32,000 bases of DNA, taken from the NCBI RefSeq assembly GCF_001598795.1, contig NZ_BCZP01000022.1:30001-62000 (forward strand), written 5' to 3'. Position numbers and translations under genes: made by a program. Below are positions 1 through 11,055 of the stretch, in pieces; the stretch's first letter is position 1, and each line of letters starts with the position of its first letter. The notes under the pieces were generated by a model, which was not told the DNA's origin, did not search any database, and saw nothing but the letters and a program-made list of their open reading frames with translations. This DNA is from Delftia acidovorans NBRC 14950. Its GTDB lineage: Bacteria > Pseudomonadota > Gammaproteobacteria > Burkholderiales > Burkholderiaceae_C.

Positions 1-74
1 ACAACAACGTCATGCCCAGCCTGGTGCTGAGCTACATCATCAGCCTCTACGGCATCTTCCCCAGCACCTCCTAA
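1..74 (+). CDS. Phage tail collar domain (MdpB-like) protein, C-terminal fragment; the 5' end is outside the window
   Basis: Frame 3 reads NNVMPSLVLSYIISLYGIFPSTS with stop TAA at 72-74. This tail parallels the C-termini of the next two ORFs (..NMQPSLVVNWCIAISGIFPARN* and ..NLQPYQALNFCICLYGDFPIRP*), so it is a third paralog in tandem. Confidence 0.6.
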   Translation, partial: NNVMPSLVLSYIISLYGIFPSTS

Positions 75-93
75 CGCTGGACAGGAGCATCAC

Positions 94-594
94 ATGGACC
101 CCTTCCTCGGAGAAATCCGTGCTTTCGGCTTCGGCCTGATCCCCAAAAACTGGCTGCCGTGCGACGGACGCCTAATGCCTGTCAGCACGAACCAGGCACT
201 GTTCGCCCTGCTGAGCGTCAGATATGGCGGCAACGGCACAACGACCTTCGGCCTGCCCGATCTGCGTGGCCGTGTACCCCTGGGATTCAGCGCAAACGAC
301 CAGCTCGGCCTGCTCAACGGCACGGAAACCGTCACGCTGTCGGTCAACCAGATCCCCCAGCACACTCATTCGGTGTCTTGCAGCAGCACGGTAGCCACTA
401 CCAGCGATCCCACCAATGCCGTGATGGCAGAGGCCGCTGGCGGCCTGGGCGCCTATGGCGTGCCCAACGGCTCCTTCCTGGCCCCAACTGCCGTGGCCCT
501 CGGCGGAGGCAGCCAGCCCCATCCGAACATGCAGCCCTCGCTGGTCGTGAACTGGTGCATCGCCATCAGCGGCATTTTCCCGGCGCGTAACTGA
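94..594 (+). CDS. Phage tail collar domain protein (microcystin-dependent protein MdpB-like), 166 aa
   Basis: The N-terminus MDPFLGEIRAFGFGLIPKNWLPCDGRL..NQALFALL...YGGNGTTTFGLPDLRGRVP is the hallmark of the Collar domain (Pfam PF07484, from memory). AGGAG lies 6 nt upstream of the ATG. No signal peptide. Confidence 0.85.
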   Translation: MDPFLGEIRAFGFGLIPKNWLPCDGRLMPVSTNQALFALLSVRYGGNGTTTFGLPDLRGRVPLGFSANDQLGLLNGTETVTLSVNQIPQHTHSVSCSSTVATTSDPTNAVMAEAAGGLGAYGVPNGSFLAPTAVALGGGSQPHPNMQPSLVVNWCIAISGIFPARN

Positions 595-617
595 AGACCT
601 TCCAAGGAAACATCGAC

Positions 618-1160
618 ATGGCAGATCCTTTCACCGGTGAGATCCGTGCATTCGGCTTCAACTACGCTCCGGTCAACTGGGCCTTTTGTTGGGGCCAGAG
701 CATCCCGATCCAACAGAACTCCACGCTGTATTCCATCATCGGCGTCCAGTTCGGCGGAAACGGAACCACTGACTTCCTCCTGCCCGATCTGAGGAGCAGG
801 GTGGCCATGGGCAACGGCACGGGTCCCGGCCTGTCACCGTTCGTGGTCGGGGAGGCCGTGGGCAGTCCCACAGAGACGCTGCTTCTGACTCAGTTGCCTG
901 CGCACAACCACGGAATCAACGTACAGGGCGCAGACGCCTCCGTGGCCGTGCCCGGCGACAACGTGCTGGCGAAGGGCGGCCAGGGCGTGCCTCCACGGAC
1001 CAGCGCCAAGCCGACCTACACCGTGGTCGCGCCAGATTCCACCCTGGCATCGACGGCCCTTTTTCCGACCGGCAGCAATCAGTCCCACAGCAATCTCCAG
1101 CCCTACCAGGCGCTGAATTTCTGCATCTGCCTCTACGGCGATTTTCCTATCCGTCCCTGA
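618..1160 (+). CDS. Phage tail collar domain protein (MdpB-like), divergent paralog, 180 aa
   Basis: MADPFTGEIRAFGFNYAPVNWAFCWGQ..NSTLYSIIG.QFGGNGTTDFLLPDLRSRV follows the same Collar pattern. The usual C-D/N-G-Q is replaced by CWGQ. AAGGAAA Shine-Dalgarno upstream; 23-nt gap to the previous gene. Confidence 0.85.
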   Translation: MADPFTGEIRAFGFNYAPVNWAFCWGQSIPIQQNSTLYSIIGVQFGGNGTTDFLLPDLRSRVAMGNGTGPGLSPFVVGEAVGSPTETLLLTQLPAHNHGINVQGADASVAVPGDNVLAKGGQGVPPRTSAKPTYTVVAPDSTLASTALFPTGSNQSHSNLQPYQALNFCICLYGDFPIRP

Positions 1161-1190
1161 TCACGAGCGCTGCACCGCAGTCCCATCGCC

Positions 1191-4100
1191 ATGGCAACCA
1201 ACCACTTCTTCCCGCCCCCCTCCACCTTCCGTTTTCTGAGGCTGTGGTTTGCCTGGCTCATGGGACTGCTGTTTTCTCTGGTACTGCCCGCGCAGGCGGC
1301 AGTCACCCCTGGAACGCTGGACTTCGGCAACAACCACACTCGCTATGCCAACGTTGCCACGCCCTACAACGAGCTGAACTTCAGCGGGCAGTGGGTCTAC
1401 TTCACCGAGGCAGACCTGCAGGCCACACAGAACGGCATCAACAGCAACGGTGATGCCATTACCTCGGACGCCCTCACTGGTAGCGCCGTCATCAAGCCGG
1501 TCAACGCCGGCGACCGGTTCAGCCTGGTCAGCGCCCGCATCTTCGCGTACGGTCAGATCAGCCAGTTCACATTGACCGGCTATGTCAACGGCAATCCTGT
1601 AGCAGGGGCAACGACGACGTTCCTCCGAAGCTCAGCAATGCAAACGAGCTTCGTCGAGGTCGATCTCAGCGCCCTGGCCAATGTGGACGAGGTGAGGATA
1701 TCCAACACCAATACCGGCGGCACCGAAGGCAGCGCCTTCGCGCTGGATGACCTCGTGGTGCTGGCCGGCGCCACGCCGACGCCCACGGTGACGTCCATTT
1801 CGCCCACCGCCGGCCCTGTCGGGGGCGGCGCCAGCGTGACCATCACCGGCACCGACCTGTCAGGAGCCACGGCCGTGCGCTTCGGTGCCACAACCGCCAG
1901 CTACATCGTCAACAGCAACACCCAGATCACCGCAACCGCCCCCGCAGGCAGTGCCGGCACGGTCGATGTGACCGTCTCCACGGCAGGAGGCACCAGCGCC
2001 ACCAGCGCCTCTGACCAGTTCACCTATGTGGCAGCGCCCACGGTGACATCCATCTCCCCCACGGCAGGACCTACCGGCGGCGGTACCACGGTGATCATCA
2101 CCGGCACCGGCTTCTCCGCAGCATCGCCGACCGGCGCCGTGCGCTTCGGCGCCACGAACGCCAGCTACACCATCAACAGCAACACACAGATCACCGCCAC
2201 CACGCCCGCAAACAGCGCCGGCACATACGATGTGACGGTGACCACGGCGGGCGGAACCAGCGCCACCAGCGCCGCTGACCAGTTCACCTATGTGGCTGCA
2301 CCCACGGTGACCTCCATCTCGCCCACGGCCGGCCCGACCGGGGGCGGCACCAGCGTGACCATCACCGGCACCAACTTCTCCGGCACCACGGCGGTGACCT
2401 TCGGCGCCACGGCCGCCACGGGCGTCACGGTCATCAGCAACACCCAGATCACTGCCACCGCGCCCGCAGGCGTGGGTACGGTGGATGTGCGCATCACCAC
2501 GGTGGGCGGCACCAGCGCCACCAGTGCAGCCGACCAGTTCACCTATGTGGCGGCACCGTCGGTCACCTCCATCTCGCCCACGGCAGGTCCCACCGGCGGC
2601 GGCACCACGGTGATCATCACGGGCACCGGCTTCGCCGCAGCACCTGGCACCGGCGCCGTGCGCTTCGGCGCCGCGACCGCCACCTACACCATCAACAGCA
2701 ACACCCAGATCACCGCCACCGCGCCCGCAGGCAGCGCAGGCACGGTCGATGTGACGGTGACCACGGTGGGCGGCACCAGTGCCACCAGCGCAGCCGATCA
2801 GTTCACCTATGTGTCAGCACCCACGGTGACTTCCATCTCGCCCACGGCAGGGCCCACCGCAGGAGGAACCTCGGTGGTCATCACCGGCACCAACTTCTCC
2901 GGCACCACTGCCGTGACCTTCGGCGCCACGGCCGCCACAGGCTTCACGGTCAACAGCGCCACGCAGATCACGGCCACCGCGCCTGCAGGCACGGGTACGG
3001 TTGATGTGCGCGTGACCACGGTGGGCGGCACCAGCGCCACCAGTGCGGCCGACCAGTTCACCTACGTGGCCGCGCCCACGGTGACTTCCGTCTCGCCCAC
3101 GGCAGGGCCAGCCGCAGGAGGAACCTCCGTGGTCATCACTGGCACCAACCTCTCCGGCGCCACGGCCGTGACCTTCGGCGCCACGGCCGCCACGGGCTTC
3201 ACGGTCAACAGCGCCACGCAGATCACGGCCACCGCGCCTGCAGGGTCGCCGGGCACGGTCGATGTGCGCGTCACTACGGTGGGTGGCACCAGCGCCACCA
3301 GTGCGGCAGACCAGTTCACCTATGTCACGGCGCCCACGGTGACCGCCATCTCGCCCACGGCCGGGCCTGCAGGCGGCGGCACCACGGTCACCATCACCGG
3401 CACCGGCTTTGCCGCAGCACCGGGCACCGGCGCTGTGCGCTTCGGGGCCACGAACGCTACCTACACCATCAACAGCAACACCCAGATCACGGCCACGGCG
3501 CCGGCCGGTGCTGCCGGCACGGTCGATGTCACCGTCACCACGGTGGGCGGCTCCAGCGCCACCAGCGCCGCCGACCGGTTCACCTATGTGGCAGCGCCCA
3601 CGCTGACCTCCATCTCGCCCACGGCAGGTCCCACGGCCGGAGGCACCTCGCTGACCCTCACCGGCACGAACCTCACGGGTGCCACGGCCGTGACCTTCGG
3701 TGCCACGGCAGCGAGCGGCTTCACCGTCAACAGCGCCACCAGCATCACCGCCACCGCGCCCGCAGGCGCCGCCGGCACGGTCGATGTGCGCGTGACCACG
3801 CCGGGCGGCACCACTGCTACCAGCGCGGCCGACCAGTTCACCTATGTGCCCGCACCCACGGTGACTTCCGTCTCGCCCGCAAGCGGTTCTTCGATTGGTG
3901 GCACCACGGTCACCCTGACCGGCACGAACTTCACCGGCGCCACGGCCGTGACCTTCGGCGGCACGGCCGCCACGGGCTTCACGGTCAACAGCGCCACGCA
4001 GATCACGGCCACCGCGCCTGCAGGATCGGCGGGCACGGTCGATGTGCGCGTCACAACGACTGGTGGCACCAGCGCCACCGGCGCGGCAGGCCAGTTCACC

Positions 4101-5456
4101 TATGTGGCCATCACGGTGACGCCCGCGACGCTGGCCGGCACGCCCAAGGTAGGCGTCTCGTTCAGCGAGACCCTGACCGCCAGCGGCGGCGCAACGCCCT
4201 ACACCTTTGCAATGGCCGGCGGCAGCACGCTGCCCACAGGCCTGTCGCTGTCGTCCGCCGGGGTGATCAGCGGCACGCCCACGGCGGCCGGGGCCTTCAG
4301 CTTCACGGTGCAGGCGACCGACAGCAGCAGCATCAGCGGCCAGCGCACCTACAGTGGCAGCGTGGCGGCAGCCACGGTGGTGCTGACGCCCGCAGCTTCC
4401 ACGCTGCCGGCTGCCAGGCTGAACACGGCCTATGCAGGGCAGACCTTCACTGCCAGCGGAGGCACGGCGCCCTACACCTACGCCAGCAGCGGCACGCTGC
4501 CGACCGGAATGACGCTCAACGCCAGCACCGGTGTTCTGGGCGGTACGCCCACCGCGGCGGGAAGCTTCACCTTCACCATCACGGCCACGGACTCCTCCAC
4601 GGGCACGGGTGCTCCGTTCACCTCGGGCAGCACCAGCTACACCCTGGTGGTGAACTCCACCAACGCCGACCTCAGCGCCCTGGCACTGAGCAGCGGCACG
4701 CTCGCACCGGGCTTTGGTGCAGGCACCCTGGCCTACACGGCCACCGTGCCCAACACCAGCAGCACCATCACGGTGACAGCCACCGCTGCCGGTGCGGGCG
4801 CCACGATCCTGGTCAACGGCGCAGCGGCCTCCACCCCGGTGGCGCTGAATGTGGGCAGCAATACCGTGTCCATCGAAGTCACGGCGCAGGACGGCACGAC
4901 CAAAAAGACCTATGTGGTTACGGTGACGCGTGAGCCACTGCAAAGCGCGTCCGGCCTGGGCGTGGATCTGGGCATTTCCAACAGTAGCCCCACCTGCACG
5001 CTGACTTCCACAAACTTCAGCACTTCCACCGCCGTGGCGGGTTCGTTGGGTCCTCTGCCAGCGGGCTACACCTATCCGCAGGCCGCCGTGGATTTCACGG
5101 CCAAGCAGTGCGCCCCCAGCAGCACGCTGACCGTGACCCTCACCTTCGCGTCGCCCGTGCCCGCCAACGCGCAGCTGATGAAGTACGACGCCACCGCAAC
5201 GCCCAAGTGGCAGCCCTTCACGCCCACCATCAGTGGCAACCAGGTCAGCTACACCATCGTGGACGGCGGCCTGCGCGATGACGACAAGACGGTCAACGGC
5301 GAGTTCGTCGATCCCGTCATCCTGGCCCTGCCTGGAGCCCCCGCAGGAGCGCAGAGCATCCCCACGCTGGACCGCTGGGGCCTGCTGCTGCTGTCGCTGA
5401 TGGCGGGAGCAGCCGGCTTCATGGGCATGGCGCGCAGGCAGCGTACCGGACGGTAA
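1191..5456 (+). CDS. Giant secreted or cell-surface repeat protein (1,421 aa): signal peptide, unknown N-domain, 9x IPT/TIG, 2x He_PIG-like Ig, cadherin-like beta-sandwich, choice-of-anchor-like domain, IPTL-CTERM anchor
   Basis: Signal-peptide-like N-terminus (..FRFLRLWFAWLMGLLFSLVLPAQA|A). About 160 aa of unrecognised N-terminal domain follow. Nine 85-88-aa repeats (P-T-V-T-S-I-S-P-T-A-G-P-x-G-G-G-T-x-V-x-I-T-G-T-x-F...V-D-V-x-V-T-T-x-G-G-T-S-A-T-S-A-A-D-Q-F-T-Y) are typical of IPT/TIG Ig folds. Two repeats of SGG.APYT...LPTG..L....G...GTPT.AG.F.FT..ATDSS are He_PIG-like. ADLSALALSSGTLAPGF...YTATVPN.SSTITVTATAAGAGATILVNG...VSIEVTAQDGTTKKTYVVTVTR is cadherin-like beta-sandwich type. A Cys-pair domain ends in TIVDGGLRDDDKTVNGEFVDPV, then the IPTL tail. 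There is no convincing SD at 1191, so the start is less certain than the frame. Confidence 0.9.
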   Translation: MATNHFFPPPSTFRFLRLWFAWLMGLLFSLVLPAQAAVTPGTLDFGNNHTRYANVATPYNELNFSGQWVYFTEADLQATQNGINSNGDAITSDALTGSAVIKPVNAGDRFSLVSARIFAYGQISQFTLTGYVNGNPVAGATTTFLRSSAMQTSFVEVDLSALANVDEVRISNTNTGGTEGSAFALDDLVVLAGATPTPTVTSISPTAGPVGGGASVTITGTDLSGATAVRFGATTASYIVNSNTQITATAPAGSAGTVDVTVSTAGGTSATSASDQFTYVAAPTVTSISPTAGPTGGGTTVIITGTGFSAASPTGAVRFGATNASYTINSNTQITATTPANSAGTYDVTVTTAGGTSATSAADQFTYVAAPTVTSISPTAGPTGGGTSVTITGTNFSGTTAVTFGATAATGVTVISNTQITATAPAGVGTVDVRITTVGGTSATSAADQFTYVAAPSVTSISPTAGPTGGGTTVIITGTGFAAAPGTGAVRFGAATATYTINSNTQITATAPAGSAGTVDVTVTTVGGTSATSAADQFTYVSAPTVTSISPTAGPTAGGTSVVITGTNFSGTTAVTFGATAATGFTVNSATQITATAPAGTGTVDVRVTTVGGTSATSAADQFTYVAAPTVTSVSPTAGPAAGGTSVVITGTNLSGATAVTFGATAATGFTVNSATQITATAPAGSPGTVDVRVTTVGGTSATSAADQFTYVTAPTVTAISPTAGPAGGGTTVTITGTGFAAAPGTGAVRFGATNATYTINSNTQITATAPAGAAGTVDVTVTTVGGSSATSAADRFTYVAAPTLTSISPTAGPTAGGTSLTLTGTNLTGATAVTFGATAASGFTVNSATSITATAPAGAAGTVDVRVTTPGGTTATSAADQFTYVPAPTVTSVSPASGSSIGGTTVTLTGTNFTGATAVTFGGTAATGFTVNSATQITATAPAGSAGTVDVRVTTTGGTSATGAAGQFTYVAITVTPATLAGTPKVGVSFSETLTASGGATPYTFAMAGGSTLPTGLSLSSAGVISGTPTAAGAFSFTVQATDSSSISGQRTYSGSVAAATVVLTPAASTLPAARLNTAYAGQTFTASGGTAPYTYASSGTLPTGMTLNASTGVLGGTPTAAGSFTFTITATDSSTGTGAPFTSGSTSYTLVVNSTNADLSALALSSGTLAPGFGAGTLAYTATVPNTSSTITVTATAAGAGATILVNGAAASTPVALNVGSNTVSIEVTAQDGTTKKTYVVTVTREPLQSASGLGVDLGISNSSPTCTLTSTNFSTSTAVAGSLGPLPAGYTYPQAAVDFTAKQCAPSSTLTVTLTFASPVPANAQLMKYDATATPKWQPFTPTISGNQVSYTIVDGGLRDDDKTVNGEFVDPVILALPGAPAGAQSIPTLDRWGLLLLSLMAGAAGFMGMARRQRTGR
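1782..4109 (+). repeat. In-frame tandem array of nine IPT/TIG-domain coding repeats (255-264 nt each)
   Basis: I located the unit boundaries by hand at 1782, 2037, 2301, 2556, 2820, 3075, 3333, 3597 and 3855, with the array ending at 4109. Adjacent units of the same subtype are visibly about 90% identical at DNA level, for example 2820-3074 versus 3075-3332. Confidence 0.9.
5358..5456 (+). other. IPTL-CTERM protein-sorting signal at the C-terminus of the giant protein
   Basis: ..AQS-IPTL-DRWGLLLLSLMAGAAGFMGMA-RRQRTGR*. This is the IPTL motif, a hydrophobic helix and a basic cluster, which is the tripartite layout of the IPTL-CTERM model (TIGRFAMs/NCBIfam; accession TIGR04174 from memory, verify). 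Confidence 0.75.
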
Positions 5457-5471
5457 GACGCGTCAACAAGC

Positions 5472-5512
5472 AACCCGCGCTGCTGCATGTCGGCAGCGCG
5501 GGTTTGCTTTTG
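5472..5512 (+). terminator. Rho-independent terminator candidate downstream of the giant gene
   Basis: A 12-bp perfect GC-rich stem, aacccgcgctgc (5472-5483) / gcagcgcgggtt (5493-5504), extends by 2 further pairs and is followed by tgcttttgg. It begins 16 nt after the TAA. Confidence 0.6.
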
Positions 5513-7414: not shown

Positions 7415-8266
7415 TCACCCGCCCTGCACTTCGAGGCCGCGCATGGTGCGCGCCATGGCCGCGCGGCCCAGGGCCACGATCACGGCAATCCACAGGGCTT
7501 GCAGCGCCAGGCAGGCCAGCATCTGCGCACCGGCCATCTGGCCGAAATAGATGCGCGCAGGGATGTCCATCACGCCGGCCAGCGGCTGCAGCAGCAGCGC
7601 GGTCTGCCAGGCATCGGGCATCAGCGCCAGCGGCAGCAGGTTGCCCGACAGCACGATGACCACGGGCGCGGCCAGCGTGTTGATGCCTTTTTCATTGAGC
7701 GCGGCGGCAGCGGCAACATTCAGCAGCATGACCAGTGCCGTGGACAGCAGCAGCGCCAGCAGCATGGACGCGGCAAAGCCCAGGCCTGCGGCCCAGCCGG
7801 CCGGCGGCTGCCAGCCCCAGTCGCCCAGCCCCATCAGCGGCAGGGCCAGCCCTGCAAACGCCACCATCAGCGCCACGCGCGGCAGCACGCGCGCGGCGAT
7901 CCAGCCAGCCGAGCGCACGAACCACAGCGCATAGGCATCCACGGGCCGCAGCCGGTCATAGGCAACGGCGCCCGTGCGCACGGCCAGGGCCACGTCGGGG
8001 TCGCCGCTCCAGGGCAGCAGCGCGAACAGGCCCTGCGCCACCCAGGTGTAGGTGATGGCGTGCTCCAGCGAAATCGGCGCGCCGGCCGATGCCGAGGCGC
8101 TGCCGTAGAACGCCGCCAGCACCATGATCTTGATGGCGCCCCACCAGCACTGCGTGGCAAAGCCCGCGTAGGCGGCCGTGCGGTACTGCAGCATCAGCAG
8201 AAAGCGCGAGGCGAAGGCGGCCTTGTAGGGGCGCAGCAGGTGTCGCAGGCGGTGGTGCGGTCCCAT
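7415..8266 (-). CDS. ABC-2 family transporter permease (DUF990 / ABC2_membrane_6 type)
   Basis: ..YKAAFASRFLLMLQYRTAAYAGFATQCWWGAIKIMVLAAFY.. is a multi-span membrane protein. The start lies 6 nt downstream of the ATPase stop, so this is an operon arrangement. Confidence 0.8.
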   Translation of the reverse strand: MGPHHRLRHLLRPYKAAFASRFLLMLQYRTAAYAGFATQCWWGAIKIMVLAAFYGSASASAGAPISLEHAITYTWVAQGLFALLPWSGDPDVALAVRTGAVAYDRLRPVDAYALWFVRSAGWIAARVLPRVALMVAFAGLALPLMGLGDWGWQPPAGWAAGLGFAASMLLALLLSTALVMLLNVAAAAALNEKGINTLAAPVVIVLSGNLLPLALMPDAWQTALLLQPLAGVMDIPARIYFGQMAGAQMLACLALQALWIAVIVALGRAAMARTMRGLEVQGG

Positions 8267-8271
8267 GGCGC

Positions 8272-9132
8272 TCAGACCTCCGAGGCACCATGCATGGCGT
8301 AGAAGCGGGCGATCACGGCCTCGATGGCCATGTCCTGCCCCTCGCCCTCGCCTTCGCCATCGCCCGTGCCATCGCGCTGCGCCGCCGCCACCTGGGCCCG
8401 CAGCGCATCGACCGCGCAGTCGGCCAGCACGCGGCCATGGCCGATGACGATGACGCGCCGCGCCAGCGCCTCGATGTCGTGCATGTCATGCGTGGTCAGC
8501 AGCACCGTGGTGCCGCGCTCGCGGTTGGCGCGCAGCACGAACTCGCGCACGGCCAGCTTGGAGGGTGCGTCCAGGCCGATGGTGGGCTCGTCCAGGAACA
8601 GGATCTCGGGCTCGTGCAGCAGGGCCGCGGCGATCTCGGCGCGCATGCGCTGGCCCAGGGACAGCTGGCGCACGGGCTGGTCCAGCAAGCGCTCCAGGCT
8701 CAGCATGGCCACCAGCTCGTCGCGGGTGCGCGCAAAGCGCAGCGGATCGACGCGGTACAGGTCGCGCAGCAGGTTGAAGCCATCGCCCACGGGCAGGTCC
8801 CACCACAGCTGCGAGCGCTGTCCGAAGACCACGCCGATGCGGCCCACATGGCGCTGGCGGTCGGCGAAGGGGTCGCGCCCGTCCACCTCCACGCGCCCGC
8901 CATCGGGCCGCAGGATGCCCGACAGGATCTTGATGGTGGTGGACTTGCCCGCGCCGTTGGGGCCGATGAAGCCCAGCAACTCGCCACGCTCCAGCGCAAA
9001 CGACACGCCATCCAGAGCCTGCACCGTGCGGTGGCGCGGACGCACCAGCGCGCGCAGCGCGCCCATCACGCCGGGGTCGCGCTCATGGATGCGGTAGGTC
9101 TTGCGGAGGTCGTGGACGAGGATCTGGGGCAT
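8272..9132 (-). CDS. ABC transporter ATP-binding protein (COG4586-type, partner of the two ABC-2 permeases)
   Basis: Walker A GPNGAGKSTTIK, signature LSLGQRMR, Walker B ILFLDEPTIGLD, H-loop TTHDM. The start is taken at the ATG MPQILVHDLRK (9132). The GTG at 9168 is the alternative. There is an acidic GDGEGEGEG linker near the C-terminus. Confidence 0.9.
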   Translation of the reverse strand: MPQILVHDLRKTYRIHERDPGVMGALRALVRPRHRTVQALDGVSFALERGELLGFIGPNGAGKSTTIKILSGILRPDGGRVEVDGRDPFADRQRHVGRIGVVFGQRSQLWWDLPVGDGFNLLRDLYRVDPLRFARTRDELVAMLSLERLLDQPVRQLSLGQRMRAEIAAALLHEPEILFLDEPTIGLDAPSKLAVREFVLRANRERGTTVLLTTHDMHDIEALARRVIVIGHGRVLADCAVDALRAQVAAAQRDGTGDGEGEGEGQDMAIEAVIARFYAMHGASEV

Positions 9133-9270
9133 GGCGCTGAGCGGTGAGGTAAGCGCAGAGGGGGGCACAGAGGGGGCGCGATTCTACACAGGACCGGGCT
9201 TTGCTATCCTGCGCGCAAATTCGCGGATGGAAATCCGCCTTGCCGCACGCACGCACAAAGGAAACACAAC

Positions 9271-11055
9271 ATGGCAGCTGAAGGCAATGCAAGCCAGCTC
9301 GTAGGAATCGTCACGCTGCTGGGGGCCGCCGTGGTGGCCGTGCCGCTGTTCAAGCGGCTGGGCCTGGGCGCCGTGCTCGGCTACCTGGCCGCCGGCCTGG
9401 CCATAGGCCCCTACGGGCTGGGCCTGGTGACGGACGCGCAGACCATCCTGCACGTGGCCGAGCTGGGCGTGGTGATGTTCCTCTTCGTCATCGGGCTGGA
9501 GATGAAGCCCTCGCACCTGTGGGATCTGCGCGGCCAGATCTTCGGGCTGGGCAGCCTGCAGGTGGTGGTGTGCGCGCTGCTGCTCACGGGCGTGGGCATG
9601 GCCTTCGGCTTTCCGTGGCAGGTGGCCTTCGTCAGCGGCGCGGGCTTCGTGCTCACCTCCACGGCCATCGTCATGCAGGTGCTGGCCGAGCGTGGCGACA
9701 TCCTGGCGCCGCGCGGCCAGCGCATCGTCTCCATCCTGCTGTTCGAGGACCTGCTCATCGTGCCGCTGCTGGCCGCCGTGGCCTTTCTGGCCCCGGCCGA
9801 TGCGGCGCCCGTGGCCACCTCGCCCCTGTGGCAACGCGCGGGCGTGGCCCTGCTGTCGCTGGGCGCGCTGGTGGGCGCGGGCCTGTGGCTGCTGAACCCG
9901 CTGTTCCGCATCCTGGCCAAGGCCAAGGCGCGCGAGGTGATGACGGCCGCCGCGCTGCTGGTGGTGCTGGGCGCCGCCCTGCTGATGGAGATGGGCGGCC
10001 TGTCCATGGCCATGGGCGCCTTCGTGGCGGGCGTGCTGCTGTCCGAATCCTCGTTCCGCCACCAGCTGGAGGCCGATGTGGAGCCCTTCCGCGGCCTGCT
10101 GCTGGGCCTGTTCTTCCTGGGCGTGGGCATGGCACTGAACCTGGAGGTGGTTGCGCTGAACTGGCGCATCGTGGGCATGGGCGTGGTGGCGCTGATGCTG
10201 GGCAAGGCGCTGTGCATCTATGCCGTGGCCCGCGTGGCGCGCAGCAGCCATGCCGATGCACTGGACCGCGCCATCCTCATGGCCCAGGGCGGGGAGTTCG
10301 CCTTCGTGCTGTTTGCCGAGGCGCTCAAGCTCGGCGTGCTCGACCCCGAGGTGCATGCCAACATGACGGCCATCGTCGTGCTGTCCATGGCCATCACGCC
10401 GCTGGTGGTGGTGCTGCACAAGCGCCTAGCCGGCGCCGAGGCCGTGTCGCTGGACGGCGTGGAGGCGCCGCAGGACCTGCGCGGCAACGTGCTGGTCATC
10501 GGCTTCGGCCGCGTGGGCCAGATCGCCAGCCAGGGGCCGCTGGCCCGTGGCGCCAAGCTGTCCATCATCGACAACGACCCCGACGTGATCCGCAACGCCG
10601 AGCCCTACGGCTTCAAGGTCTACTTCGGCGACGGCGCGCGCGCCGACATCCTGCATGCGGCCGGCGCCAGCCATGCCAGCGCCATCCTGGTCTGCGTGGA
10701 CAGCAAGGCCGCCGCCACGCGCATCGTGGAGAACGTGCGCCACGAATGCCCGCACGCCCGCCTCATCGTGCGCGCCTATGACCGCGAGCACGCGCTGGAG
10801 CTCATCCAGAAGGACGCCGACCATGTCGTGCGCGAGAGCTTCGAGTCCGCCCTGCTCATGGGCCGCCATGCCGTGCTGGCCCTGGGCGCCACCGAGGACG
10901 AGGCCCAGACGCTGGAGGCCGAAGTGCGCGGCCGCGACACCGAGCGCTTTGCGCTGGAGACCGCCGGCGGCAACTTTGCGGGGCGCGCACTGCTGCTGGG
11001 CAACATCGAGCGCATCGATCCGCCCCGGCACGACAAGCCCACCGCCATGGATTGA
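9271..11055 (+). CDS. CPA2-family monovalent cation:proton antiporter with C-terminal RCK/TrkA-N domain (KefB/KefC-like K+ efflux)
   Basis: N-terminal Na+/H+ exchanger-type membrane domain (..LLGAAVVAVPLFKRLGLGAVLGYLAAGLAIGPYGLG..). This is followed by the Rossmann motif VLVIGFGRVGQ of TrkA-N. AAAGGAAA SD upstream. Confidence 0.9.
   Translation: MAAEGNASQLVGIVTLLGAAVVAVPLFKRLGLGAVLGYLAAGLAIGPYGLGLVTDAQTILHVAELGVVMFLFVIGLEMKPSHLWDLRGQIFGLGSLQVVVCALLLTGVGMAFGFPWQVAFVSGAGFVLTSTAIVMQVLAERGDILAPRGQRIVSILLFEDLLIVPLLAAVAFLAPADAAPVATSPLWQRAGVALLSLGALVGAGLWLLNPLFRILAKAKAREVMTAAALLVVLGAALLMEMGGLSMAMGAFVAGVLLSESSFRHQLEADVEPFRGLLLGLFFLGVGMALNLEVVALNWRIVGMGVVALMLGKALCIYAVARVARSSHADALDRAILMAQGGEFAFVLFAEALKLGVLDPEVHANMTAIVVLSMAITPLVVVLHKRLAGAEAVSLDGVEAPQDLRGNVLVIGFGRVGQIASQGPLARGAKLSIIDNDPDVIRNAEPYGFKVYFGDGARADILHAAGASHASAILVCVDSKAAATRIVENVRHECPHARLIVRAYDREHALELIQKDADHVVRESFESALLMGRHAVLALGATEDEAQTLEAEVRGRDTERFALETAGGNFAGRALLLGNIERIDPPRHDKPTAMD

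Follow-up and report, generated by a model that had tools for sequence, protein, structure and literature searches.

A conserved trio of phage collar-type proteins lies beside genes for giant surface proteins and varies as part of a hypervariable cassette in Delftia

Introduction

The Collar domain family is well known, as is the presence of phage fibre domains on bacterial surfaces. The closest described bacterial proteins are RhiB, from rhiABC of Rhizobium leguminosarum, and Microcystis MrpB (COG4675, MdpB), small stand-alone Collar proteins encoded outside prophages whose function is undescribed. Compared by description, each is the product of a single collar gene paired with RhiA or MrpA, under quorum-sensing or microcystin-related regulation, and the accounts of them report no typed trio, GNAT, DUF6916 or adhesin partner. 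Here we analyse a 32,000-nucleotide (nt) stretch of the Delftia acidovorans NBRC 14950 genome (contig NZ_BCZP01000022.1, positions 30,001 to 62,000; hereafter the window), which begins with three tandem collar genes of distinct type that run into the gene for a giant surface protein. We find that this trio, together with a GNAT and a DUF6916 protein, is an ancient cellular module present in many phyla, that it is non-randomly placed beside genes for envelope-anchored surface proteins, and that in Delftia it varies as part of one allelic block. The regulator gene near the Delftia module encodes a LysR protein. Microcystis MrpC was considered as a precedent for a collar-adhesin pair and dropped, since it is a pilin and no linkage to mrpB is stated for it.

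A phage Collar domain has also been described in a bacterial appendage, in the shufflon PilV-tail-collar fusion, where it is carried covalently on the pilin, is proposed to set binding specificity and is diversified by DNA inversion (PMC9881135). The Delftia collars, unlike this fusion, are separate proteins without signal peptides that vary as allelic cassettes. Among phage proteins, T4 gp12 (1OCY, 5IV5), the fibre 8KEC and gp37 (2XGF) resemble the collars in the Collar sequence, with its LPD(L/M)RG, GG and HxH marks. Relative to gp12, the collars have only about 170 amino acids (aa), begin at the collar and lack the shaft and the baseplate-binding part; and whereas gp12 is one homotrimer-forming gene, Delftia has three distinct paralogs, set among cellular genes with GNAT and DUF6916. 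Minor tail proteins of Arthrobacter and Microbacterium phages, which of all phage proteins come closest to the collar unit as a whole, belong to ordinary tail modules with mostly one matching place, two in some, and no typed trio was seen among them.

Two further kinds of system are similar in layout, by general description alone. In phage and tailocin fibres, a tip and its cognate chaperone pair a hypervariable binding domain with a small adjacent accessory protein that co-varies with it; polymorphic receptors like Myxococcus TraA combine a variable distal domain, a repeat stalk and a C-terminal sorting signal. The literature searched contained no mention of DUF6916 and no description of the trio/GNAT/DUF6916 module, and neither its association with surface proteins nor a hypervariable cassette of this kind was found there, in line with the original prediction, made from the window sequence, that a functional link between a collar triplet and an IPTL-CTERM protein is undescribed.

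Results

Three collar proteins resembling phage fibre tips

The window opens with the 3' end of a type-1 collar gene (collar1; positions 1..74, plus strand), followed on the same strand by a type-2 gene (collar2; 94..594, 166 aa) and a type-3 gene (collar3; 618..1160, 180 aa). Gaps of 19, 23 and 30 nt separate collar1, collar2, collar3 and the giant gene, and open reading frame (ORF) calls agree with the predicted gene ends at 74, 594 and 1160 and with the 1,421-aa neighbour. The upstream sequence was read from L001, the locus in a 6.78-Mb Delftia contig (GCA_000741825.1) that encodes an identical collar3 and in which window position 1 is position 9384. There the type-1 gene is complete (8936-9457, 173 aa), starting 448 nt upstream of the window.

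All three proteins score well over the gathering cut-off of Pfam Collar PF07484 (24 bits), with 98.1 bits for collar1, 83.9 for collar2 and 81.7 for collar3, which places them in PF07484 and among the COG4675 MdpB-like proteins; NCBIfam holds no model for them. Collar1 was assigned by its type-1 hidden Markov model (HMM) score of 236 bits vs 207. The Pfam match begins at residue 6-7 of collar2 and collar3, and a signal peptide therefore has no room in the collars, as had been proposed. Collar2 carries an HxH motif at H90/H92 plus the invariant H143, and collar3 carries the 'GTGPGL' insert of type 3. The two complete copies had been described as clearly diverged, with CDGR versus CWGQ in the core, which stands, CWGQ being the form in collar3; their identity, estimated at about 45%, measured 42%. 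Similarly, the C-terminal tail claimed for the collars is common to collar2 and collar3 (N-x-Q-P...N..I...G.F-P), while collar1 deviates at two positions, with M for Q and S for N (N-V-M-P-SLVL-S-YI-I-SLY-G-I-F-P).

In a sequence search of the PDB, the T4 short tail fibre gp12 was the only solved relative (E=0.008). An AlphaFold2 monomer model of collar2 (predicted local distance difference test, pLDDT, 76.6) matched the cyanophage A-1(L) tail fibre (8kec), T4 gp12 (1ocy) and the gp37 tip in Foldseek with probabilities of 0.97-1.0, all of them trimeric fibre tips. The template modelling (TM) scores were low, at 0.30-0.35, because a single-chain model was compared with intertwined trimers. In PHROGs the collars match tail and tail-fibre families, and minor tail proteins of Arthrobacter and Microbacterium phages show 35-39% identity over nearly the whole 166 aa. 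Residues H90, H92 and H143 are invariant in collar alignments of 15 and of 76 sequences; in gp12 and gp37, the HxH motifs coordinate metal on the trimer axis. The fibrous N-terminal shaft and the baseplate attachment region are absent, all copies being 163-186 aa long and beginning with the Collar domain. Sequence and model together indicate that the collars are complete fibre tips without a shaft, each in effect the receptor-binding end of a phage tail fibre made as a separate protein.

The trio is conserved across bacterial phyla

A protein search returned more than 6,200 clusters of collar relatives, with names including 'phage tail protein' and the JGI term 'microcystin-dependent protein', and at least 591 related loci occur in species-representative genomes (one genome per species). 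From these we analysed the 80 best, retrieved by type-2-specific peptide patterns, such that the fractions below hold for relatives of the type-2 collar, not for all Collar proteins. The 80 loci come from at least eight phyla, among them Proteobacteria, Firmicutes, Actinobacteria, Acidobacteria, Chloroflexi, Bacteroidota, Myxococcota and Gemmatimonadota. A trio is present in 70 of them. In 66 of these there are exactly three collars (163-186 aa) in a co-oriented tandem, in one there are two trios and in three a copy is split or partial; the ten loci without a trio have a single collar. An arrangement this regular is far beyond chance.

Clustering on raw identity by the unweighted pair group method with arithmetic mean failed to separate the collar types, whereas iterative typing and a neighbour-joining tree succeeded, resolving three near-pure clades (F 0.92-0.96) with type-specific marks such as a 5-residue insert and LPNLxG in place of LPDLRGR. 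For none of the 210 collars in the 70 trio loci is the nearest relative a paralog from the same locus, and for 198 it is a collar of the same type. The types are ordered 2-1-3 in 40 loci, 1-2-3 (as in Delftia) in 19, 1-3-2 in nine and 3-1-2 in two. Each locus holds one collar of each type, and where duplication has occurred it copies whole trios (L072, L102). The idea that the three genes are distinct paralogs rather than redundant copies is thus borne out by the typed clades, by the absence of same-locus nearest relatives, by the one-per-type rule and by whole-trio duplication. An obligate three-part (1:1:1) assembly would predict just this strict conservation, across phyla, of one collar per type. 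Only seven related loci were found among 2.9 million viral contigs, and identity between collars of different phyla (45-55%) lies above the 35-39% to phage homologues. The trio with GNAT and DUF6916 is, in sum, an ancient cellular module found across many phyla.

Several loci depart from the common pattern. The ten single collars (L030, L031, L039, L048, L051, L053, L078, L081, L088, L089) score almost equally on the three type HMMs, and the family GNAT adjoins several of them; they may represent a homotrimeric, pre-triplication state. Five IMG/VR contigs carry trios. Two contigs filed as viral, the IMG/VR contig L099 (1-5456) with nine collars and L102 (5693-8909) with six, consist of nearly nothing but tandem collars, as repeated trios, and are probably cellular fragments misfiled through the 'phage tail' label. 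A metagenome-assembled genome labelled Candidatus Bathyarchaeia (L063, 4578-6157) has a full trio, a GNAT and an upstream 1,173-aa ORF, whose presence in a contig assigned to an archaeon reflects either horizontal transfer or a binning error. Frameshift-split collars in the otherwise complete trios of L036 (8229-9274) and L080 (10548-11045) suggest occasional decay of the module.

Association with exported surface proteins

Of the 70 trios, 25 have an ORF of 800 aa or more within 300 nt; the number rises to 38 at 1.5 kb and to 43 at 3 kb. In the background, 2.9% of genes more than 4 kb away reach this length (10/347; binomial P ~6e-14). These large neighbours are mostly adhesin-like, with Big_9, Cadherin-like, He_PIG, Big_12, beta-helix, RTX, SLH, autotransporter and T9SS-tail domains, and most of those of at least 800 aa have signal peptides. 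Unbiased clustering of all neighbours within 4 kb produced two large families alone, the GNAT (52 loci) and the giant repeat proteins (34 loci). At a further 13 of the 70 loci, which are without a giant protein, we found a 200-260-aa signal-peptide protein ending in PEP-CTERM, compared with 4 of 1,339 background ORFs. In Acidovorax YS12, a GNAT-DUF6916 gene and three collars occur with a 1,166-aa TIG/Big_9/fn3/IPTL-CTERM protein in an unrelated neighbourhood, and in Paenibacillus curdlanolyticus a 2,140-aa cadherin/SLH protein precedes the GNAT and the three collars.

A C-terminal domain of about 130 aa is common to nine giant proteins from four phyla whose genes immediately precede trios; in some of them (L056, L082) a right-handed beta-helix comes before it. 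We used this domain for a reciprocal search of metagenomes, which yielded 80 loci, 79 of them with enough sequence. A collar gene starts within 400 nt downstream in 59 of the 79 (75%), and the full trio is present in 35 of 49 loci, usually with GNAT and DUF6916 next. The position of the module next to genes for surface proteins that are exported and anchored in the envelope, either giant (Ig, cadherin or beta-helix) or small (PEP-CTERM), is therefore not random, and the enrichment is large in both search directions despite crude ORF calls and non-independent loci. The neighbourhood statistics proposed with the original prediction thus upheld the placement of trios beside adhesins; a specific tie to IPTL-CTERM proteins was not upheld, as SLH, T9SS-tail, autotransporter and PEP-CTERM proteins serve as neighbours too. 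As a separate observation, the Nitrosomonas trios L018 and L037 have small PEP-CTERM proteins on both sides, with the family GNAT and DUF6916 undetected nearby.

A hypervariable block in Delftia

Five Delftia genomes or contigs, representing five alleles, hold the module at the same syntenic site. Between L001 and a second allele, L010, nucleotide identity is 97-99% in the flanking genes and 98-99% in the downstream genes. It is 100% in the GNAT half of the upstream fusion gene and 86% in the DUF6916 half, and a recombination breakpoint must therefore lie inside this gene. From there identity runs at 77%, 75% and 73% through collars 1, 2 and 3, then at 63% over the first 200 codons of the giant gene, 85% over its TIG repeats and 96% over its last 460 codons. 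The same trough is seen in all ten Delftia allele pairs, and three strains with 99% identical LysR genes have three different cassettes. At the protein level, the tip domain of the giant protein shows 45-73% aa identity between alleles, and collar2 falls into at least six allele classes in Delftia (62-77% identity).

Inside the block, synonymous divergence (dS) is 0.25-1.24, compared with 0.04-0.10 beyond its limits, and the nonsynonymous-to-synonymous ratio (dN/dS) is 0.29-0.47. The combination of high dS and low dN/dS points to old alleles that have been exchanged or kept as a unit, not to recent positive selection. DUF6916, the three collars and the adhesin tip form one allelic block, inherited and diversified together.

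The GNAT and DUF6916 partners

In the L001 contig, the gene directly upstream of collar1 encodes a 280-aa GNAT-DUF6916 fusion (8097-8939, that is, 444-1,286 nt before window position 1) and overlaps the collar1 start by 4 nt. A family-specific GNAT HMM (150-230 bits) detects a GNAT within 1.5 kb of 55 of the 70 trios, within 150 nt in 39 cases; a DUF6916 HMM detects that domain within 2.5 kb of 45, and one or the other is present at 62. The two are separate genes in most lineages and fused in Delftia, Acidovorax and Simplicispira. The nearest named GNAT is RimI, at 31.4 bits and hence below the equivalog cut-off of 86.4; by NCBIfam the protein is a generic GNAT, and it belongs to a module-specific subfamily of its own. 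DUF6916 (about 95 aa) has an alignment pattern that suggests a mostly beta fold. Its profile gave a marginal match in the PDB to the phage 812 neck adaptor only (E=0.029), and tblastn against phages gave no match. None of the defence models in PADLOC-DB 2.0 was matched by the GNAT-DUF6916 protein or the three collars. In five Acidobacteria loci (L033, L043, L050, L054, L076), two GNAT and two DUF6916 genes each lie upstream of the trios, in the recurrent order GNAT / DUF6916(+) / GNAT / DUF6916(-).

Architecture of the giant surface protein

The 1,421-aa giant protein (1191..5456, plus strand, as are all of its domains) was defined by ORF calling, Pfam and NCBIfam. Collar, TIG, He_PIG, Cadherin-like and IPTL-CTERM, the families that had been proposed for searching in this region, all gave matches. 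A predicted Sec-type signal peptide (1191..1298, aa 1-36, ending in LPAQA before the next A) was read from the sequence by eye, with a basic n-region, a hydrophobic core and an AQA-A cleavage motif. The hypervariable N-terminal tip domain follows (1296..1790, aa 36-200), leading into nine tandem IPT/TIG repeats (1782..4109, aa 198-973; Pfam TIG in nine stretches, 448 bits, and NCBIfam CoaZ_rpt_PGGG) with a period of 85-88 aa. Next come two He_PIG Ig-like domains (4110..4673; best Pfam stretch aa 974-1058), a Cadherin-like beta-sandwich domain (4674..4934, aa 1162-1248; Pfam), a choice-of-anchor U domain (5058..5327, aa 1290-1379; NCBIfam) and an IPTL-CTERM sorting signal (5352..5435, aa 1388-1415), SIPTLDRWGLLLLSLMAGAAGFMGMARR. 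The last of these scores 34.5 bits with Pfam PF18203 (cut-off 20.8) and 30.4 with TIGR04174 (cut-off 20.5), and the protein has the full set of IPTL-CTERM features, namely the motif, a hydrophobic helix, a basic tail and a predicted N-terminal signal peptide.

The AlphaFold2 model of the tip domain (pLDDT 84.7, predicted TM score 0.82) has a jelly-roll, carbohydrate-binding module (CBM)-like fold, with Foldseek matches to DUF4465, CBM35, CBM61, CBM22 and Cry domain III, and this N-terminal CBM-like domain is the variable part of the protein. It is rare: a full HMMER scan of 1.84 billion proteins returned 10 cluster representatives, and word-indexed protein searches with the N-terminal 220 aa of the giant protein, as with DUF6916, found essentially nothing. 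One relative, at L106, heads a 1,506-aa He_PIG/Big_9 autotransporter in a different genomic context, and its gene comes directly after GNAT, DUF6916 and three collars. Since the tip domain here sits on another scaffold beside the module, it is the tip, not the stalk or the anchor, that travels with the module. The linkage between collars and adhesin, at first a matter of position only, accordingly extends beyond it, in the enrichment of giant ORFs, the 75% reciprocal recovery, the co-variation in Delftia and the recurrence of the tip at L106.

A comparison of the tip domain with the small PEP-CTERM proteins by hhalign gave a probability below 1%; given this and the lack of tip HMM matches elsewhere, no common partner domain can be claimed. 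A polymorphic toxin or contact-dependent inhibition locus was considered and is not supported: no variable toxin domain is present in the giant protein, which has Ig-like, CBM-like and anchor domains only. Minus-strand ORFs inside the TIG region (2814-4943, including one of 709 aa, and ORFs of 84-85 aa at 2288-4099) follow the periodicity of the TIG unit and look like artefacts of a GC-rich repeat rather than genes. A further Delftia assembly (GCA_903469625.1; L003, 1248-5601) has the giant gene as two called ORFs (756 and 661 aa) that part within the TIG repeats, probably through assembly collapse or a frameshift. The giant allele of L096 is shorter, at 1,165 aa, from which it follows that the number of TIG repeats varies.

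Genomic neighbourhood in Delftia

A terminator-like hairpin of 14 pairs (10 G-C) followed by a T-rich tail lies 16 nt past the giant-gene stop (5472..5504, plus strand), and there is no comparable hairpin between the GNAT-DUF6916 start and 5472. Given the 4-nt overlap, the gaps of 19-30 nt and this sole strong terminator, the GNAT-DUF6916 gene, collars 1-2-3 and the giant gene probably form a five-gene unit with a single transcript.

Further upstream, the 9 kb that we inspected contain genes for LysR, an FMN dehydrogenase, RraA, a 2-hydroxyacid dehydrogenase, two TctC proteins and a fimbrial protein. The other 22 predicted genes of the window have Pfam matches solely to transport, regulatory and metabolic families. 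No phage gene for a tail tube, sheath, baseplate, tape-measure, integrase or lysis protein was found in the 9 kb upstream or the 26 kb downstream, and the suggestion that the collars stand without other phage-like genes thus survives both the downstream Pfam scan and inspection of the upstream sequence, which has no tail module. The fimbrial gene (L001 622-1626), about 7 kb upstream of the module, encodes a chaperone-usher-type adhesin with a Fimbrial domain and a weak MrkD-like receptor-binding domain; D. tsuruhatensis L096 has no such gene at the corresponding position.

Discussion

The reading that we favour, with belief and doubt about evenly balanced, is that these genes form a domesticated fibre-tip module, probably heterotrimeric, that works with anchored surface proteins in surface recognition. 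The three collars would form one trimeric knob, with a single copy of each (1:1:1), that is held by a metal staple and binds a ligand. DUF6916 could act as a collar assembly factor or adaptor, because it co-varies with the collars whereas the GNAT does not; the invariant GNAT would instead modify something that stays constant, perhaps the collar N-termini, which are strictly conserved. Knob and anchored stalk tip might then jointly recognise a strain-specific surface ligand, probably a glycan, for adhesion, self/non-self recognition or interaction with phages. A more ambitious picture, which we put forward tentatively and with more doubt than confidence, is of a widespread recognition system in which the GNAT and DUF6916, the latter as adaptor or chaperone, mature the heterotrimeric knob, which is exported and docks on the end domain of the stalk, the cassettes setting strain specificity. 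Cassettes of such a system would govern kin discrimination, cell-cell cohesion or the control of phage adsorption.

A number of observations weigh against a joint function at the cell surface. The collars, GNAT and DUF6916 are all without a signal peptide, and as GNATs need acetyl-CoA, the module acts at least partly inside the cell, in the cytoplasm. With the giant protein predicted to be Sec-exported and the collars signal-less, physical contact between them requires a further export step, and no transporter or secretion gene recurs within 4 kb of the module. For about 30% of trios, no gene within 1.5 kb can be recognised as encoding a surface protein. The giant proteins have no single domain in common across phyla, and the Delftia tip-domain HMM finds no match in partner proteins outside Delftia and L106. 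Three separate homotrimers fit the data as well as one heterotrimer does. Simple linkage in a recombined segment, without co-adaptation, could also account for the allelic block, and dN/dS is below 1. Finally, the 80 loci are phylogenetically non-independent, the counts ignore kinship and the ORF calling was crude.

Much of this would be accommodated if the module were independent of the surface protein, with the collars, GNAT and DUF6916 forming a cytoplasmic complex that acquires its neighbours through variable, co-regulated or exchanged islands; in a variant, the collars would be intracellular chaperones for the adhesin end domain before its export. We judge this account unlikely, although it fares best among the alternatives. 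It fits the missing signal peptides, with the Collar domain starting at residue 6-7 in every copy, the cytoplasmic chemistry that a GNAT implies, the trios that have no surface-protein neighbour, and the absence of a recurrent secretion gene. RhiB and MrpB, known only as regulated proteins, offer a stress or quorum analogy, and COG4675 proteins have been detected in soil metaproteomes. Yet a cytoplasmic complex does not lead one to expect neighbour enrichment at P ~6e-14 or reciprocal recovery of 75%, the return of a rare tip domain with the module on a different scaffold, or a variable block that ends inside the adhesin gene, past the tip and the repeats; the metal-stapled fibre-tip fold, moreover, is typical of extracellular binding proteins.

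A role against phages appears still less probable. The collars would bind the cell's own receptor or adhesin as a mask or decoy and diversify in an arms race, which would agree with the deep allelic divergence of collars and adhesin tip in near-identical backgrounds and with the kinship of the collars, in fold and sequence, to phage receptor-binding tips and actinophage minor tail proteins. Such a device would sit poorly with the lack of any PADLOC model match, of an effector or abortive-infection domain beyond the generic GNAT and of an export signal, and the dN/dS of 0.3-0.5 speaks of old, constrained alleles, not of rapid positive selection. A decaying prophage or tailocin remnant that happens to lie beside an adhesin, as database names like 'phage tail protein', the PHROG tail matches and the five trio contigs in IMG/VR might suggest, is effectively refuted by the absence of any other phage gene in the 9 kb upstream and the 26 kb downstream, the recurrence of the trio, along with GNAT and DUF6916, across many phyla (70 of 80 species), the intact ORFs under purifying selection and the closer relationship of the collars to one another across phyla than to phage homologues.

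Domestication of a fibre tip for work with surface proteins, the reading we prefer, would bear on thousands of genes named 'phage tail protein' or 'microcystin-dependent protein' that have been treated as prophage debris or left unexplained. A large subset of these genes belongs to a conserved cellular module, linked to adhesins and highly polymorphic within a genus, and with the module recognised, prophage predictors that score such collar genes as viral would be corrected as well. If the coupling is functional, it would amount to a widespread bacterial domestication of a phage receptor-binding device and would offer a route to the binding specificity of giant adhesins, most of which have no known ligand. 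The module would then also be a candidate locus for strain recognition in bacteria of soil and water, the opportunist Delftia among them.

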